A DNA stretch of 27,210 bases from Chloroflexota bacterium (GTDB lineage Bacteria; Chloroflexota; Chloroflexia; QHBQ01), in contig JAYUUN010000105.1 of NCBI GenBank assembly GCA_043754535.1, positions 62,001 through 89,210 on the forward strand, read 5' to 3'. This document shows, in pieces, positions 6,114 through 26,787 of the stretch (its first letter is position 1; the number at the start of each line of letters is the position of its first letter). A model generated the notes under the pieces. The model was given only the letters and a program-made list of their open reading frames with translations. It made no database searches and was not told where the DNA came from. The translations under genes were made by a program, and so were the position numbers.

Positions 6114-9100
6114 CTAACTGGCTACTTGCAGGGCTGCATCCATGCGCTCAAGTTCGCGCACCAGACCAAGGCTGGTAAAGAGGGCATAGCCCTGCTGCCA
6201 CAACTCGCGCCCCCGCTGCGGATCGCCCGCCTGCAACTCGTACTCTGCCCAGCTACGCAAACTACGCGCTTCTTCCACCTGGATACCGCCCAGCCTGTAG
6301 ATCAGGGCTACCTCGGCATAGCAATTGCTGGCGGTGTAGAGCCTGCCCTCTGCTTCTACTCCGTTGCAGGCAGCCGCAACCAGGGTGAGGGCTTCCCAGG
6401 CGATGGCGATGTACTCCGGCCCTTCCGTTTCCTGCACGAAGCTGAGAGCCTGCCGTGCAACTGTAGCCGCCTCTGCACACCGCTCCTGGCCCAGCAGAGC
6501 CTTGGTCAGCGACTTGTAGGTGGGAACAAGGAAGGGCAGTCGGTCGTCGCCTGCTAGCAGCAGAGCCTGTCGCACAGCAGCCTCGGCCTCGGCATAACGG
6601 CCCAGGCCGACCAACGCTTCACTGACTGTAACCAGGCTGGACAACTCGCCACGTCGCTGCCCTATTTGCTGGGCAATAGCGACTGCTTCGGTGCTGAGGC
6701 GCAGCGCAGTCTCATAGTTGTCCATTGCCAGCCATACCTCGGCCAGGTTGGAGAGGGCAATGGGCAAGATGCCACGCACCCCCATCTGCTGACCAGCAGT
6801 TACATATTCCTCGAAGTGGAGTACTCCCTGCTTGTAGTCACCTTCGACCATTGCCACCGTGCCAAGTAGATTGAGGCAGTTGGCGACCAGGCGCAGATCG
6901 CCGATCTCTCGGCTGAGAGATAGAGCCTCCTGCCCCAGCAGTTTCGCCTCGGTCAGCCTGCCCAGCAGATGCAGCACCCAGCCCCTGCCGTGCAGAGCGC
7001 GGGCGCGGGTCGCAGGTGAACTCCCTCGGCGGGCGACCTGTTCTGCCCTGGTCACGCTCTTGAGCGAGGCGTAGTGGTCGCCCAGTTCGTCTTGCAAGAA
7101 GGCAAGGCCGAGTAGAGCTTGTACCTGCCGGTCGGGGTCGGCAGCGGTGACGGCGGTGCGGCGCATGGCGGCATAGACCAGCATCGCCTCCTCGAAGCGG
7201 GCCTGGTTCCGCAGCACCAGACCAAGGGCCTCGTAGATGTCCAACCGCTGAGCGGAATAGAGTGGCTCGTCAGAGATGAGGGTGAGGGCTTGCTGATAGT
7301 GGTGAGCAGCTACATCGGGTAGATAGCGCACTTCTGCCCGCCCCCCCGCCTGAGCATACCACTGCCCTGCGAGCAGGGGTTGGTTGCCCTGTTCATAATG
7401 GAGAGCGAGCAGGGCGGCGTATTCGCCAACCCGTGCGCCGCTCTGCTCCTGAATCCAGGCTGCCATAGCCGCGTGGTAGCTGCGCCGCACCTTCCGCAGC
7501 ACCCCCTCGTAGGTCACATCGCGTAGGATCGCGTGCTTGAAACTATACTCAGCACTACCCTGGAAGTCAGAGTCATTGTGTTGGTAGATCAGCCCCTTAC
7601 CCACCAGCGATTGCAACAAGGCGCAAGTTTCATTCTTGGGCTGATCGTTCGCCAGCCGCTGCACTGCGCTATCCCAGAAGATGCGCCCCACGACCGAAGC
7701 ACGTTGGATCGTTGCCAGTTCCTCGCGGCTGAGGCTGTCTAGGCGAGCTTGCAGCACGCCGGTGAGGGTGGGTGGCACGCGCAGGCGGCCCGGTTGGGCA
7801 TTAACCACCTGCCACTGCTCCTCGCCACGCAGGATCACTTCCTCCTCAATCAGCATCTTGATAATTTCTTCGATGTAGAAGGGGTTGCCTTCGGCTCCAT
7901 CACTGATCAGGTCGAGCAGTGCACCTGGTACTTGGGGGATGGGCCGTAGGATGTCTCTAGCCAGGCTGCGGCTCTCCTCCTGCGAGAGGGGCGTGAGATC
8001 AATCCGCTGGTAGCCAGCCAGCCCAGCCCCCCACTGTGGCTGCTCCTCAAAGAGGATCGGCCTGCTTGCCGCGATGATCAGCAGTGATTCGCTCTGGCTC
8101 TGCTGGGCCAGGTAGGTGAGTAGGGCTAGCGAACCCGCGTCGGCCCAATGCAAGTCATCGAGCAGCAGCATCACTGGGAAGCGGGCAAGGGCGGCCTGCA
8201 TCAAGCTGGCGAAGTAACGAGAACCATCGTCATGCAGTTGGCGTTGGCTCTGCTTGCGCTCTTGCACGGCGGGGCTGTCGCTGAAGTCGAAGCCGAGCAG
8301 TTGGCCCAACACCTGGGCCTGCTCCTCGCTCTCCGGGCCGAGGAAGCTGGCTACCCCGCGCACAAACTTGTCGCAGACCACAGGGAGCGGATCGTTGTCG
8401 AGGATATCGAAGCGCAAAGCCAGCATCTCACGCAGCAGACCGTAGGGAACGTTGCTCTGGTTCTGCTCGGCCTGGGCGCAGAAGTACCAGACGGTGGGGG
8501 TGGTGAGGTCAAACCAGATGTTGAACTCCTGGAGCAGGCGCGACTTGCCCATACCAGCCTCGGCTACTATCGTCAATAGTCGTAGGCCATTCCCTTCCAG
8601 CACCTCCTGGTGGGCGTGCTTGAGCCGTGCCAACTGGCCGTCGCGGCCCACCATCGTGGTCACAACCCCCTCTACTCCACGCTGGCTAACCCGCAGGGGG
8701 CGGGGTCGCTCACCGCGGGCCAGATAGGCCTGCACTGCTTCGCTCTTGCCCTTCAAGGCCAGTGGCTCTAGCCGCCGCAGTTGGAAGCCACCGCGTACCT
8801 GACGGTAGACATCCTGCGAGATGACCACCCCGCCAGAGGGGGCAGTTTGTTGCAGGCGGGCCGCCAGGTTGACGCTGTCGCCAACTACCGTGTACTCCCC
8901 CCGCGTGCCAATCGTGGTCAGTAGCACAGGGCCAGTATGGACCCCTACGCGCAGGCCCAGTTCGGGCAACGAGCGGCGGTTCATCTCCACAGGTAGGCTA
9001 AAGCTGGCGAAGGCAGTCTGCATCGCCAGGGCAGCCCGCACTGCCTGCTGGGGATCATCCTCGTGGGAGACAGCCGCGCCGAACAAGGCAAGCAGGCCGT

Positions 9101-9401
9101 CACCCAGGTGCTTGTCTACTACCCCGCCAAACTGGCGCACGATAGCGTCAAGTTCGGCCCACAGAGCATCTAGCGCATCGGCCACATCCTCTGCGTCAAC
9201 CGCTTCAGACCAGGCGGTGTAGTTGGCAATGTCGGCAAAAAGGATGGTCAATTGCTTGCGCTGAGCCTGCTGGCTACGCTCAAGCAGAGTTAGCTTCTCA
9301 CTCAGGGCGGCTACCGCTGCCTCAACCACAGCGTCACCAAGCTGGCTACGCTGGCCTGCCAGCTTGCTGATCGCCTCCTCAATTTGCTCGCGCTCGTTCA
9401 C
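6114..9401 (-). CDS. Class III adenylate/guanylate cyclase - STAND (AAA_16) ATPase - TPR protein
   Basis: Cyclase motifs LFADI, DKHLGDG and YTVVGDSVNLAARL (K/T specificity residues suggest ATP). P-loop AEAGMGKSRL, Walker B LLLDDLHWAD, GNPFY and FKHAILRDV.Y; TPR C-terminus. Confidence 0.92.
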   Translation of the reverse strand: MNEREQIEEAISKLAGQRSQLGDAVVEAAVAALSEKLTLLERSQQAQRKQLTILFADIANYTAWSEAVDAEDVADALDALWAELDAIVRQFGGVVDKHLGDGLLALFGAAVSHEDDPQQAVRAALAMQTAFASFSLPVEMNRRSLPELGLRVGVHTGPVLLTTIGTRGEYTVVGDSVNLAARLQQTAPSGGVVISQDVYRQVRGGFQLRRLEPLALKGKSEAVQAYLARGERPRPLRVSQRGVEGVVTTMVGRDGQLARLKHAHQEVLEGNGLRLLTIVAEAGMGKSRLLQEFNIWFDLTTPTVWYFCAQAEQNQSNVPYGLLREMLALRFDILDNDPLPVVCDKFVRGVASFLGPESEEQAQVLGQLLGFDFSDSPAVQERKQSQRQLHDDGSRYFASLMQAALARFPVMLLLDDLHWADAGSLALLTYLAQQSQSESLLIIAASRPILFEEQPQWGAGLAGYQRIDLTPLSQEESRSLARDILRPIPQVPGALLDLISDGAEGNPFYIEEIIKMLIEEEVILRGEEQWQVVNAQPGRLRVPPTLTGVLQARLDSLSREELATIQRASVVGRIFWDSAVQRLANDQPKNETCALLQSLVGKGLIYQHNDSDFQGSAEYSFKHAILRDVTYEGVLRKVRRSYHAAMAAWIQEQSGARVGEYAALLALHYEQGNQPLLAGQWYAQAGGRAEVRYLPDVAAHHYQQALTLISDEPLYSAQRLDIYEALGLVLRNQARFEEAMLVYAAMRRTAVTAADPDRQVQALLGLAFLQDELGDHYASLKSVTRAEQVARRGSSPATRARALHGRGWVLHLLGRLTEAKLLGQEALSLSREIGDLRLVANCLNLLGTVAMVEGDYKQGVLHFEEYVTAGQQMGVRGILPIALSNLAEVWLAMDNYETALRLSTEAVAIAQQIGQRRGELSSLVTVSEALVGLGRYAEAEAAVRQALLLAGDDRLPFLVPTYKSLTKALLGQERCAEAATVARQALSFVQETEGPEYIAIAWEALTLVAAACNGVEAEGRLYTASNCYAEVALIYRLGGIQVEEARSLRSWAEYELQAGDPQRGRELWQQGYALFTSLGLVRELERMDAALQVAS

Positions 9402-10767: not shown

Positions 10768-11790
10768 TCAGCGTTCGATGTTACCAAAGGTGTCGCGGGT
10801 AGCACCATCTGCGTCCTTGCTGCTTACCTGGTTGGGGTCGGCAGCGGCGCGGGCGGGCGCATTACTGTTGTCAATATAGCCACCTGCCTGGTTCACCGCG
10901 TCGCCTACCGCACTGGCTGCGTCGGGTTGGTCGGTGCGGAGGCTCTCGCTAGCGGCATAGCTCGTGGTTGCAGCGTACTGTGAACCAGTGGTGGTCTTGG
11001 CGTAGTCCCCCCCACCTTCGGAGCCAGCCAGCCCAGCATTGCCCATTGCGGCATCGCTGGCAGCGGCATAGGCAGCTTCCTGATCGCGCAGGGCGGGGTC
11101 GTGTGCGTCGAAGTAGTTGGCGGTGGAGTTGTTGCCCGCCTCTATCTCGCTGGCCGGGTAGACCCCACCAGAGAGCGCATCGCTAGCAACCATCGTCGGG
11201 CTGACGGCGGTCATCCTGCCACTGGTGGTGCTACCAATCCCTGCATTGCTAGCGGTCAGCGCAGGGCTGCTGCCCATGCGGTTCTGCACATCCTCAGCCC
11301 CAGCATCAAGCAGGATGCGGCGGGTAGCAGCCTCATCCTGACCCTGCGGGTCAACGGTGAGCAGGATACTGCCCTCGCCTACTGCTGCCTGGTAGTATTG
11401 CGCCTCCTCGGATGGCACACCCGCATTGGTCAGGCTGCCCAGCAGCCCCCCTGCGACGGCCCCGGTTGCCGCGCCAATGCCAGCTCCAGCGGCAGTCCAG
11501 GCCAGCGCACTACCTGCAAGAGCAATAGGGCCGAGGATCGGCAGGGTGAGGATAGTACCAGTGGCGATCAAAGCGGCCAGTGCGCCACCGACGACCGTGC
11601 CTTCAACAGCCCCCGCCCCAGCAACAGTACCAGCATCAGTTACATCGTTGGCAGCGGCCATCGTCTTGCTGGTGTCGCGGTTTTGGGCGACCACGCCGAT
11701 CTGGTTGGCCTCATAACCAGCCGCCTTCAGATCGCTGATCGCTCGCTCGGCGGCACTCTCAGTGCGGAACAAACCTACTACAGTAGCCAT
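10768..11790 (-). CDS. General stress protein (YflT/17M-like N-terminal domain with glycine-zipper hairpin), paralogue B
   Basis: SD AGAGGAGGAG then ATG 11790. MATVVGLF...AERAI..LKAAGY...IGVVA, GxxxG-rich TM hairpin, GVPSEEAQYY...G.ILLTV; low-complexity tail. Confidence 0.82.
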   Translation of the reverse strand: MATVVGLFRTESAAERAISDLKAAGYEANQIGVVAQNRDTSKTMAAANDVTDAGTVAGAGAVEGTVVGGALAALIATGTILTLPILGPIALAGSALAWTAAGAGIGAATGAVAGGLLGSLTNAGVPSEEAQYYQAAVGEGSILLTVDPQGQDEAATRRILLDAGAEDVQNRMGSSPALTASNAGIGSTTSGRMTAVSPTMVASDALSGGVYPASEIEAGNNSTANYFDAHDPALRDQEAAYAAASDAAMGNAGLAGSEGGGDYAKTTTGSQYAATTSYAASESLRTDQPDAASAVGDAVNQAGGYIDNSNAPARAAADPNQVSSKDADGATRDTFGNIER

Positions 11791-11919
11791 TCTCGCTCCT
11801 CCTCTTGGCTGGCGAACTAGTTGCCGAACAAAGACGCTGCCCGCGTTGCCAACCACTGCGGTTCAGGGTTGTGGCTGCGGGCAGAGTCTGCTAGTGGTTA
11901 AGTTGGCTGGCGGTCAGCC

Positions 11920-12822
11920 TTAGCTGTGGTCGCCAAGCTCGTTGCGGACATCACCCTCGGCGCGCTTCATCTTGCCTTCAACCACGTCGCCGGTGCCGCC
12001 GGCCTGCAAGTTGTCGTTGTTCAACACGTCACCAACGCCGCGCTTGATGTTGCCGAAGGTCTCCTGCGCTGCGCCACCAACCTGGTCATGGTCGGGGAGA
12101 ACCTTGCCAGCATCGTGGGCTACATTGCCAGCTGCGTTGCCAGTGTTGTTCGCCGCAGTGCCAATGGCGTTGCCAGTGTTGTCCATTGCACTACCAGCAG
12201 CATAGCCAGCACTACCCATCGCGCTGCCAGCGGTGTAGCCAGCGTTGCCCGTCGTGCTGCTAGTGCTGTCAGCATAGGTGCTGCTCATGCTGCCAGTCCC
12301 CGTGCTGCTGCTGTCGCCCTGGAAGCTGACAGCCCCAGCAGTGCTGAGGATTTGGCGGGTCTGGCTTTCGTTCTTGTTGCTGTGGACGGTAAGGAGGATG
12401 CCACCCTGACCGACTTCGGTCTGGTAGAAGCGGGCCTCATCCTCTGGTACGCCAGAGTCGGTCAGGCTGCCGAGCAGACCACCAGCGATAGCCCCAGTTG
12501 CGGCACCGATACCAGCCCCAGCGGCGGTCCAGGCCAATGCGCTACCTGCGAGGGCGATAGGGCCGAGGATTGGCAGGGTGAGGATAGTACCAGTGGCGAT
12601 CAAGGCCGCCAGCGCGCCACCGACGACGGTGCCTTCGACGGCCCCCGCCCCAGCGGCAGTACCAGCGTCAGTCACATTGTTGTCAGCGGCCATTGCCTTG
12701 CTGGTGCCGCGGTTCTGGGCGACTACGCCGATCTCACTTGCCTCGTAACCAGCAGTTTTGAGGGCGTTGATTGCCTGCTCGGCATCGCTCTCATTGCGGA
12801 ACAAACCTGCTACGGTAGCCAT
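11920..12822 (-). CDS. General stress protein (YflT/17M-like domain) with C-terminal CsbD-like domain, paralogue A
   Basis: SD AAAGGAG. Same N-terminal domain as paralogue B. C-terminus DQVGGAAQETFGNIKRGVGDVLNNDNLQAGGTGDVVEGKMKRAEGDVR fits the CsbD pattern. Confidence 0.85.
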   Translation of the reverse strand: MATVAGLFRNESDAEQAINALKTAGYEASEIGVVAQNRGTSKAMAADNNVTDAGTAAGAGAVEGTVVGGALAALIATGTILTLPILGPIALAGSALAWTAAGAGIGAATGAIAGGLLGSLTDSGVPEDEARFYQTEVGQGGILLTVHSNKNESQTRQILSTAGAVSFQGDSSSTGTGSMSSTYADSTSSTTGNAGYTAGSAMGSAGYAAGSAMDNTGNAIGTAANNTGNAAGNVAHDAGKVLPDHDQVGGAAQETFGNIKRGVGDVLNNDNLQAGGTGDVVEGKMKRAEGDVRNELGDHS

Positions 12823-24944: not shown

Positions 24945-26603
24945 CTACTCGCCAGCGTCCAGCCTGCGTCGCGTCTCCTTCAGGTACTTTTCGGCGGCCT
25001 CGGCCAACGCAGCATAGCCAACTCGCTGCGCTATCTCCACCGCCTGCTCGAAGTACGGCAACGCCTCTTGTAGATCGCCAGCGGCAAAGTGAACTCCGCC
25101 GATGTTATTGAGGGTGGTCGCTTCGCCGCTGCGGTCGCCCACCTCGCGGCTGATGGGTAGGGCCTGCTCGTAGTAGCGTAGTGCCTGCTGCTTATCGCCC
25201 AGGTCGGCATACACCAAGCCAATGTTGGTGAGGGTGGCCGCTTCGCCGCTGCGGTTGCCCACCTCGCGGCTGATGGGTAGAGCCTGCTCGTAGTAGCGTA
25301 GTGCCTGCTGCTGGTCGCCCAGGTTGGCATACACCGCGCCGATGTTGGTGAGGGTAGTCGCTTCGCCTCTGCGGTTGCCGCTGGTGTGGTAGTGGGCTAG
25401 CACCTGCTCCAACTGGGGAAACTCGCGGGCGACTGCTGGTGGCTTGTATTGGTTGGCATCCATGTACTGCTTGTAGTAGTCGGCGTGCCGTGTCTGCGCC
25501 TCGCTCAGACTTGTGCCAGCCCGCTCACTGGCGACGGCAGCGACGACCTGGTGGAGCAGCAGTCGCCCATCCGCTGCTTCTTCCAGCAGGCTACGGCGAA
25601 CCAGCAGGTTGATCGTCTGCTCGTCGCTGGCGCACACTGCATAGGCGGCCTCGCGGCTGAAGCTAGCGGGCTTGGCAGCAAAGGCAGCGAGAGCAGCGAA
25701 GGCTGCTTGCTCCGCTGTGGTCAGCACGTCCACGCTGAGGCCGATGATCTCGCGTATTTGCTTCTTGCGCGTCTTGTCGGTCAGGGCCAGCCAGGTGTCG
25801 GCGCGGGTGCAGAGGTCGTCGAGGTCGGCCTGTGGCACGGTGTGGCGAGTGCCGCGACCGAGCAGGTAGCCCGCGATCAGGGAGATGGCGAGGGGGAGGT
25901 AGCCGACGGAAGCAACGATACGCTTGCGGGTGGCCGCCTCCACCTGCACCAATGCGGGGCAGGTTCCGGTCAGCAAGGCGAGTGCCTGCTGCTCCTGCAT
26001 CTCGCCAACCATCAGGTTGTACTCGCCGAAGCCCTGGGCAATGGCATAGTCGCGGCTGGTCAGCAGCATGGCACAGCCCGGCCCCGTCACCTGGCCGAGT
26101 AGATCAGCGTGCTGCTGGTGCCACACGTCGTCGAGGACGATCAGCAGGCGGCGTTGCTTGATCTGGTCGCGCAAGAGACGGATGCGACCTGGGGTGTCGA
26201 GTCTACCAACCTCGTTGCTGTCGAGGCCCAGTTCGCCCGCCCAGCTGGAGAGGATGATATCAAGGTTAGTGTTAGCATCTTCATTCAGCCCGACCCAGAG
26301 TACACCGCCAGCAAAGTGTTCGCGCACCTGGTAGTCGTAGGCAAGGGCAGTCGCCAGCGTGGTCTTGCCCGTGCCACCCCGCCCGTCGGTAGAGAAGGTA
26401 GTCGCCTTACCAGCCAGTAGCGCAGCCTTGAGCGGTTCGCTGAGGTCGAGGCGAGCGACAAAGTGGGGCGGCAGGCTCGGCACCCCGGCGAACGGTCTAC
26501 CATCATCAGGGCGGCCATACCAGTTGTTGACCACCGCACCGTTACCCAGCACCGCCGTGTTGCCGTTGACACTGCTGATCGTGAATTGCCTAGTGTCCTC
26601 CAC
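24945..26603 (-). CDS. NLR-like NB-ARC/TPR STAND protein with very short N-terminus (start GTG 26603 or 26618)
   Basis: P-loop GRGGTGKTTLA, kinase-2 LLIVLDDVW, LLTSR, GYLPLAI and MHD-like LLHQ; three C-terminal TPRs. Confidence 0.92.
   Translation of the reverse strand: MEDTRQFTISSVNGNTAVLGNGAVVNNWYGRPDDGRPFAGVPSLPPHFVARLDLSEPLKAALLAGKATTFSTDGRGGTGKTTLATALAYDYQVREHFAGGVLWVGLNEDANTNLDIILSSWAGELGLDSNEVGRLDTPGRIRLLRDQIKQRRLLIVLDDVWHQQHADLLGQVTGPGCAMLLTSRDYAIAQGFGEYNLMVGEMQEQQALALLTGTCPALVQVEAATRKRIVASVGYLPLAISLIAGYLLGRGTRHTVPQADLDDLCTRADTWLALTDKTRKKQIREIIGLSVDVLTTAEQAAFAALAAFAAKPASFSREAAYAVCASDEQTINLLVRRSLLEEAADGRLLLHQVVAAVASERAGTSLSEAQTRHADYYKQYMDANQYKPPAVAREFPQLEQVLAHYHTSGNRRGEATTLTNIGAVYANLGDQQQALRYYEQALPISREVGNRSGEAATLTNIGLVYADLGDKQQALRYYEQALPISREVGDRSGEATTLNNIGGVHFAAGDLQEALPYFEQAVEIAQRVGYAALAEAAEKYLKETRRRLDAGE
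25099..25380. repeat. Tandem 120-bp (40-aa TPR) repeat, about 2.4 copies
   Basis: 25141-25260 versus 25261-25380 differ at 11 of 120 positions by my count; partial third copy at 25099-25140. Confidence 0.9.
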
Positions 26604-26633
26604 CGCTCCACCCCCCACTCATCTGCTACCACC

Positions 26634-26642
26634 ATTATAGCA
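26634..26642 (-). promoter_or_regulatory. Extended -10 promoter (TGCTATAAT) for the NLR-like gene
   Basis: Reverse complement of attatagca, about 30 nt upstream of GTG 26603. Confidence 0.65.
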
Positions 26643-26787
26643 TAGAAGTGGCTGCCGTCAACTGGGTGGCCGGGTGGGAACGAGCAGCCTGGGTGCGGCG
26701 TGAGCTAGCCGGGTGTGGCGCGCTGCTGCTGGTTTCAGCCGGGCATCGGTGCCTGCTCATCAGTATTCCAGGTCACGAACACCGCTG

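Follow-up and report, generated by a model that had tools for sequence, protein, structure and literature searches.

The locus described here raises the question of where a receptor without an effector domain of its own could send its signal. The receptor gene lies on the reverse strand near one end of a 27,210-nucleotide stretch of a Chloroflexota bacterium (GTDB lineage Bacteria; Chloroflexota; Chloroflexia; QHBQ01; assembly GCA_043754535.1, contig JAYUUN010000105.1, positions 62,001 to 89,210 of the forward strand), hereafter the window, and encodes a protein of the NOD-like receptor (NLR) type in which nothing precedes the NTPase linker except a peptide of about 30 residues, rich in Asn, Gly and Val and free of Pro. 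A preliminary description of the window had ascribed to this peptide prion-like immune signaling, through an amyloid or RHIM-like motif, to an effector encoded elsewhere. We found that the peptide recurs, in register, in the only C14 caspase of the same genome (G000), and that closer NLR/caspase pairs occur in relatives (G001, of the same genus, and G002-G004, of a sister genus, are those cited most often). We consider it probable that the window NLR is an effector-less receptor that signals to this caspase in trans by candidate amyloid templating.

A receptor with a short N-terminal peptide

An NB-ARC domain followed by TPR_12 repeats (Pfam, E 1.6e-49) gives the window NLR the architecture by which bacterial NLRs are recognized, namely NB-ARC or NACHT and then superstructure-forming repeats. 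Relative to the proteome, its N-terminal peptide is enriched 4.8-fold in Asn, 2.2-fold in Val and only 1.5-fold in Gly, and contains neither Pro nor Lys. This composition agrees with that of the N-terminal bacterial amyloid signaling sequences (BASS), which are 20-40 residues long, rich in N/G/V/I/Q, poor in P/K/L and not accompanied by an effector domain, except that Gln and Ile are not enriched. The label RHIM-like proved loose, given that the G-phi-Q-phi-G core of the RHIM, PP and BASS3 motifs is absent (the sequence is NTAVLG, with no Gln in the core); no Pfam family, RHIM included, matched the N-terminus of the protein. What had been said of the peptide being the only sequence before NB-ARC, of a promoter belonging to the gene itself and of neighbors without a matching motif was borne out, the upstream side being visible for 600 bp, since the window coincides with the end of contig C105.

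Four same-family homologs with intact N-termini, which were found by homology of the whole protein or of the NB-ARC domain and not by the motif, all start with a short N/G-rich peptide and have no effector domain, and the four peptides are unlike one another. More distant homologs mostly carry N-terminal domains, and among five frames of signal transduction ATPases with numerous domains (STAND) that were viewed, three had an N-terminal domain and two a short start, which was motif-like in one of them and lacked the motif in the other. The idea that the peptide is a remnant of a truncated effector was rejected because an in-frame stop codon and the promoter lie directly upstream and 4/4 intact homologs start with a short motif. 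This stop codon (26619-26621) stands five codons before the assumed GTG start at 26603, and an alternative GTG is found at 26618. No ribosome-binding site with good spacing precedes the GTG of the NLR gene, and a 10-codon, out-of-frame ORF (26590-26622, reverse strand) opens with ATG immediately after the promoter and extends over the start of the NLR.

The G001 ortholog, whose N-terminus is cut by a contig end, is 82% identical to the window NLR and has more TPR units, with varying residues. Internally conserved, varying TPR repeats have been described for diversifying NLR sensors (10.1101/2020.01.06.895854). Residues 29-36 of the NLR vary among the strain contigs X6-X8.

The peptide recurs in the only C14 caspase of the genome

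A composition scan of G000 led to a protein of 508 amino acids (G000:C11:37096-38619, forward strand, corresponding to L029:5096-6619) with a Peptidase_C14 domain (E 4e-20), the sole C14 match in this genome. Its catalytic dyad (His88/Cys143) is intact, and S86-G87-H88-G89 and C143 are invariant in 5/5 aligned orthologs. Between the protease and a C-terminal helical domain there is an array of about 108 residues, rich in N/G/S/T and made of several different amyloid-signal-like modules, the first of which contains QAGRD, a word common in BASS cluster C01. Residues 6-27 of the NLR align with the last module, residues 381-402 of the caspase, in register and without gaps (QFNIGSINAGNVVAGNNNTISG against QFTISSVNGNTAVLGNGAVVNN), with 8/22 identical residues. 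At least 20 kb of contig lie on each side of the caspase gene, which has no STAND gene within 5 kb.

In an ungapped scan of 12,174 G000 open reading frames (ORFs) with the 22-residue core, the top non-self matches were the N-terminus of a STAND on contig C82 (47) and the caspase array (45), followed by a score of 37; in the reverse scan, the best non-self match of the caspase module was the window NLR (45; next 38). The 22-residue segment was picked after the match had been seen. When the 30-residue peptide was compared with the whole caspase, its score was reached by 31 of 20,000 shuffles. Among the N-termini of 40 P-loop ORFs, a set that includes housekeeping ATPases (7 of 16 checked), three matched the array at 0/300 shuffles: those of the window NLR and of STANDs on contigs C20 and C86. 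The query of the window NLR had five extra residues upstream of the assumed start in this test, and without them z was 3.8. In a composition control with the 60 most N/G/S/T-rich regions, the array ranked first for the window NLR, C20 and C86. Recent DNA copying as the sole cause of the shared motif was discarded on account of silent differences between the receptor and caspase copies, found at four of the eight identical residues in G000 and at 9 of 23 in the G002 pair.

The C-terminal domain of the caspase reaches 11.6-15 bits against Pfam EAD7 (cut-off 32), its nearest Atlas cluster is EAD7 at 0.87, which is a lead only, and it is helical in a low-confidence model; the AlphaFold model of the protein (40.1, five sequences) was too poor for fold searches. 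Directly upstream, an overlapping gene (G000:C11:36075-37079, L029:4075-5079, forward strand) encodes an unannotated protein of 335 amino acids with a helical start and a beta-rich core, which might be considered a candidate caspase substrate. In the comparison with caspase-gasdermin systems, this protein had no match in Pfam, NCBIfam or PADLOC and none in the PDB below E 0.33, and its AlphaFold model (four sequences, pLDDT 33.5) was of too low a quality to search with by fold. In the Atlas it lies closest to clusters without a name (0.96-0.97); among the named clusters, beta pore-forming families come nearest (0.83-0.86), again a lead only. The gene occurs in 2/61 genomes (G000 and G001 only), and homologs amounted to two non-self database proteins and one locus each in a genome scan and a metagenome scan.

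Other receptors in the genome match the same array

Three further effector-less STANDs of G000 match the caspase array, C20 and C86 strongly and C82 marginally. The AAA/TPR protein of C20 matches the same last module as the window NLR, the nSTAND1 protein of C86 the second module, and the nSTAND1-WD40 protein of C82 the last module. The two cores of the last module are spaced by 11 residues in the G000 and G001 caspases, in the window NLR and in C82. Because different, scattered STANDs match different modules of the array, the caspase would be a multi-input hub.

By eye, most other G000 STANDs viewed have HTH-like or cyclase-like N-termini. Those on contigs C43, C62, C71, C78, C93 and C97 form an expanded STAND-TPR paralog family with a common HTH-like N-terminus, as seen by eye, of which C35 looks like a 5'-shortened member. 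The G001 ortholog of the C82 protein (L084; G001:C53:14585-14896, reverse strand) is a pseudogene with an internal deletion, in which the N-terminal motif is retained. A NACHT protein cut by a contig end (L134; G000:C61:2823-4211, reverse strand) has, before the NTPase, a T/I/V/N-rich stretch at the place where its G002 and G003 homologs carry a module; against the G000 array, this stretch gives no match (109/300 shuffles).

Receptor and caspase motifs match more closely in relatives

Genes for a caspase with an array were found in G001-G005, G022 and G029. All four G000 STAND peptides score highest on the G000/G001 arrays, and 12 of 13 sister-genus STAND peptides reach a z of at least 6 on sister-genus arrays, the thirteenth matching none. 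Of the four homologs found independently of the motif, three match the caspase arrays of their own genus (z 6.1-10.7); for the fourth, a matching module was seen by eye on array proteins that are not caspases. The best sister-genus pairs range from 15/22 to 23/27 identical residues and include one of 17/21 in G003, with five silent differences.

When the G002 array was used as query, 10 matches at E<=10 were obtained in each of G002, G003 and G004 (the few weakest being noise) and none in G000 or G001. They lie on different contigs and comprise single modules, at the N-termini of NB-ARC, NACHT, nSTAND1, nSTAND5 and AAA-TPR proteins, and arrays, on caspase, EAD7-like, SAVED and unannotated small helical proteins. 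At E<=0.001 this array was found in only 3/301 genomes of the class, and the motifs, as judged from sequence, are genus-private. Across the caspase family the last array module occupies a homologous position, with two residues fewer in G000 and G001; a spacing of 13 is seen in 12/13 matched sister-genus copies (2 of 20 rows fall outside the pattern), and a spacing of 11 also occurs in other families, hence it is not shown to be derived.

In a sample of the phylum, a related caspase was present in 37/401 genomes at E<=1e-25, and an ad hoc composition score assigned an array to 11 of 25 intact caspases (from 29 loci) and to 2/300 background ORFs. Caspase-array and motif-STAND genes are linked in G022, G029, G056 and G132. 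The closed genome G132 also has an unlinked motif-STAND 170 kb away, and in G005 the partner lies on another contig. A search with the G056 NLR N-terminus recovered no effector. Four unpublished genomes (G007, G012, G015 and G034) are included in the tallies only, and no claim is made from their sequences.

Several other proteins of these genomes carry such modules. Small proteins of the sister genus (L057, L058, L060 and L056; G004:C183, G002:C2, G004:C192 and G003:C245) combine a long multi-module array with an unannotated helical domain of about 80 residues, which has no Pfam match and resembles by eye the C-terminus of the G002 and G004 caspases; they are possible adaptors or new effectors. 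L067:1414-2124 (G002:C69) encodes a SAVED domain (E 1e-12) with an amyloid-like module joined to its N-terminal side. Two STANDs (L075 and L079; G004:C83 and G002:C100) carry a module internally, ahead of the NTPase, and start with an Amidase_2 domain (scanned for G004:C83). L080, L078 and L082 (G003:C141, G004:C38 and G002:C104) have N-terminal array modules together with a YCF48-like beta-propeller (scanned for G003:C141) and a hydrophobic segment, and these proteins are possible membrane receptors feeding the same network. The cluster in G022 (L122:2663-8814; G022:C2) is a linked trio encoding a caspase-array-TCAD2, an EAD2-array-TCAD2 and a motif-NACHT protein, and adjoins a divergent nSTAND-like gene and an IS-like frame.

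Strength of the match and alternative partners

The preliminary description had called for a proteome-wide search for the motif, and the outcome was divided: the caspase and C82 were the top ungapped hits and the targeted tests found the motif in an effector of the same genome, as is typical of BASS, whereas the genome-wide null was not beaten and the sharing is far clearer in relatives. Under that null, the 30-mer scores of 51 and 45 compare with a shuffled best of 46.3 +/- 3.2, and 101/150 shuffles reach 45. This and the following results weigh against signaling from the window NLR to the caspase. A phmmer search of G000 with the first 36 residues gave no second match below E 2.7, and the G000 array as query found only itself in G000 and its ortholog in G001. 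The NLR peptide scores lower on the G001 caspase (z 1.5) than on that of G022 (z 2.5). Within G000, the match of C82 is marginal (21/300 shuffles, fifth of 60 in the composition control), and C20, with a spacing of 13 by eye, matches a caspase with a spacing of 11. In the sister genus, nine of the 13 STANDs were found with the array itself as query and kin are not independent, and two G003 STANDs match the G002 and G004 arrays better than their own caspase. Profiles built from 13 sister-genus copies and from 12 other-family copies detect no G000 copy, that of the caspase included; the G000 motif is therefore divergent, and it is the caspase alignment that places it in the family. Beyond G000, a phmmer search of 1.84 billion representative sequences with the 36 residues gave just three non-self matches, all to unrelated repeat proteins.

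The signal could be of amyloid type and the true partner another protein, of Bell, TIR or EAD type, the caspase match reflecting shared ancestry of modules. G000 is 88.9% complete, the contig ends 600 bp upstream of the gene, and the context beyond was not recovered from the sister genome or from relatives, so that a better or linked partner could be unassembled; several non-caspase proteins carry arrays in sister-genus genomes, and the identity of 8/22 is low beside the best sister pairs. However, one sister pair is likewise only 10/24 identical, C20 and C86 each provide an independent match to this caspase array, and the NLR gene has its own promoter, with two membrane-protein genes upstream. 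We regard such an unseen partner as unlikely.

The comparison between G000 and G001 bears on whether the network, real in the family, is eroding in this genus, so that the peptide no longer signals. Array codons with amino-acid changes number 15, against 14 with silent changes only, a more relaxed pattern than in the protease (8 against 21). There is a single array carrier in G000 against several in each sister-genus genome, the G001 ortholog of C82 is the pseudogene mentioned above, and the window NLR has only three TPR units. On the other side, the NLR and caspase frames, the Walker A motif, the catalytic dyad and the promoter are all intact, and on strain contig X7, with 32 differences in 25900-26522, none is listed in codons 1-27, although this is one contig with clustered changes and thus weak evidence. 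A decaying relic seems to us quite improbable.

Comparison with known signaling systems

BASS motifs form prions and fibrils, and those on the NLR side convert those on the effector side (10.1101/2020.01.06.895854). The window case resembles BASS1-10, in which an NLR is paired with a Bell protein, in its NB-ARC/TPR receptor, in an N-terminal motif of about 25 residues, rich in N/G/V/I and poor in P/K/L, that is repeated in a second protein, and in its internally conserved TPRs. BASS1-10 were defined from gene pairs within 5 kb, whereas here no visible neighbor matches and the caspase is encoded 20 kb away or more; the BASS effector motif is C-terminal, typically behind Bell, whereas here it is internal, between Peptidase_C14 and the helical domain; and BASS effectors have at most pseudorepeats of one motif, unlike the caspase, which has several different modules matched by different receptors. 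The window system would thus work like a BASS pair but lacks two defining features, adjacency and a C-terminal effector motif. TIR2, CHAT, hydrolase and cyclase effectors are on record in the same study, which mentions Chloroflexota as well. CHAT effectors are known in adjacent bacterial pairs.

The motifs were compared by eye with 175 effector-side sequences of one validation file (PMC8086366, supplement 1), and in this partial dataset AVLGN, VVAGNN, VNSGSG, GDISG and AIGRGA gave 0 matches. The likeness to BASS3, RHIM and PP consists, by eye, in a hydrophobic-Gly core with Asn at +7 and an aromatic residue at +9, and in a G-x-T-A before the core as in some C03 members; both conserved Gln residues of these motifs are missing. 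As far as its sequence goes, the window motif is not a RHIM or BASS3 motif, though BASS3-like in layout.

In the Bab/Agp antiphage system an N-terminal motif of the sensor likewise templates the effector, and BASS11 templating drives abortive infection (10.1101/2024.11.07.622273); unlike the window case, this system consists of two adjacent genes, with a Bell-like pore former, a TPR-GreA/B-PIN sensor and one motif. BASS11 has also been reported with EAD7, TIR, CHAT, NACHT and NB-ARC. In fungi, motif-bearing NLRs outnumber their effectors and are unlinked to them, and Wojciechowski et al. speculate that many NLRs control one effector (PMC9815663). The fungal effectors are PNP_UDP, HeLo or MLKL-like with C-terminal motifs, and the accessible text describes no multi-module hub and has 0 occurrences of 'caspase'. 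Conflict systems with EADs and the EACC1-caspase pair (PMC7159879, PMC8195603) similarly link STANDs to caspase-type effectors, sometimes elsewhere in the genome, through homotypic adaptors, and EAD7, EAD1, EAD2 and TCAD2 occur in the array and motif-STAND loci examined; their adaptor is a folded helical domain, which the window NLR lacks, and the caspase scored 87.9 against the EACC1-associated caspase model (cut-off 140). Literature searches turned up neither a bacterial C14 caspase described with a multi-module amyloid array nor an unlinked network in bacteria, and subscription papers and supplements (BASS Table S2 and Fig. S5; BASS11 extended data) may bear on this.

The internal position of the array also suits non-amyloid homotypic contacts, such as finite beta-solenoid stacking, or mere stabilization of receptor oligomers, and cell death would not have to be the output. 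For fungi, a scaffold role of internal motifs has been proposed (PMC9815663), similar segments lie between HTH, EAD or amidase domains and NTPases, and the sister-genus beta-propeller protein bears a module. Against this stand the composition and length, which fit BASS (10.1101/2020.01.06.895854), the QAGRD word in the first module, and the way in which single modules of effector-less STANDs pair up with the arrays of caspase, SAVED and EAD proteins, which implies a signal between proteins. Contacts of this kind are, to our judgment, rather improbable as the explanation.

Features and surroundings of the receptor gene

The features of the locus are collected in Table 1. The neighbors of the NLR gene, a convergent phosphoribosyltransferase gene and a gene for a small membrane protein, lack the motif.

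Table 1. Positions in the window of the receptor gene and its elements.
Feature	Position	Strand	Basis
Gene of NLR type, 552 aa, for a short N-terminal motif, NB-ARC, a winged helix and three closely similar TPR units	24945..26603	-	ORF, Pfam
N-terminal peptide of the preliminary description, residues 1-30, containing QFTISSVNGNTAVLGNGAVVNNWYG	26514..26603	-	sequence
Core candidate amyloid signaling motif, residues 6-27, aligned gap-free to the caspase	26523..26588	-	ungapped scan, shuffles, composition control
NB-ARC domain, residues 62-292	25728..26420	-	Pfam E 3.1e-19, over cut-off
Walker A, GRGGTGKT	26384-26361	-	sequence
TPR repeats conserved among themselves (period of 120 bp, 2.4 copies, 90% alike), a putative sensor	25097..25379	-	repeat analysis
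Sigma-70-like promoter with extended -10, TTGACG-16-TG-TATAAT	26634..26661	-	11/12 match, 1 found vs 0.3 expected; consensus match only

Elsewhere in the window, a guanylate/adenylate cyclase-AAA_16-TPR protein (6114-9401, reverse strand) is a STAND with its own effector domain and has no array match, and two convergent paralogous ORFs (10768-12822) have near-identical N-terminal halves that are stress-protein-like by eye.

Proposed mechanism and implications

The best reading of these data is dispersed, many-to-one candidate amyloid signaling onto a multi-input caspase, which goes beyond the partly supported earlier interpretation, whose main prediction of an unlinked carrier of the motif held but where neither a multi-module array nor several converging receptors had been foreseen. 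What the data show is the architecture, the shared motif, its scattering over the genome and its recurrence in relatives. By analogy with BASS and Bab/Agp, from which we infer the amyloid state, the binding, the activation of the caspase, the immune role and the existence of a substrate, ligand binding to the TPRs would lead to oligomerization of NB-ARC, and the oligomer would cluster the peptides into a predicted cross-beta seed. The seed would recruit the caspase via the matching module and activate it by proximity, other scattered STANDs would enter through other modules, and the output would probably be abortive cell death or defense.

A wider form of this reading is possible, and we hold it tentatively: a genome-wide, lineage-private amyloid switchboard, in which effector-less STAND receptors of unrelated classes (NB-ARC, NACHT, nSTAND1 and AAA-TPR) would carry one address module each and caspases or other effectors concatenated arrays, providing orthogonal channels to one caspase, whose neighboring gene may encode the end point, an undescribed pore-forming substrate. 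If true, this would be an inflammasome-like pathway with amyloid in place of death domains.

Screens of adjacent NLR-effector pairs, on which the catalog of bacterial amyloid signaling is based, are blind to unlinked partners and to internal motifs. The natural sets of matched and mismatched motifs, within one array and between sister genera, make the specificity of cross-seeding testable with short peptides. Signaling of the window NLR to the caspase, if true, would constitute a bacterial analog of receptor-to-caspase signalosomes, with amyloid as the adaptor and a C14 caspase as the target, and would give 'orphan' effector-less NLRs a possible signaling target.
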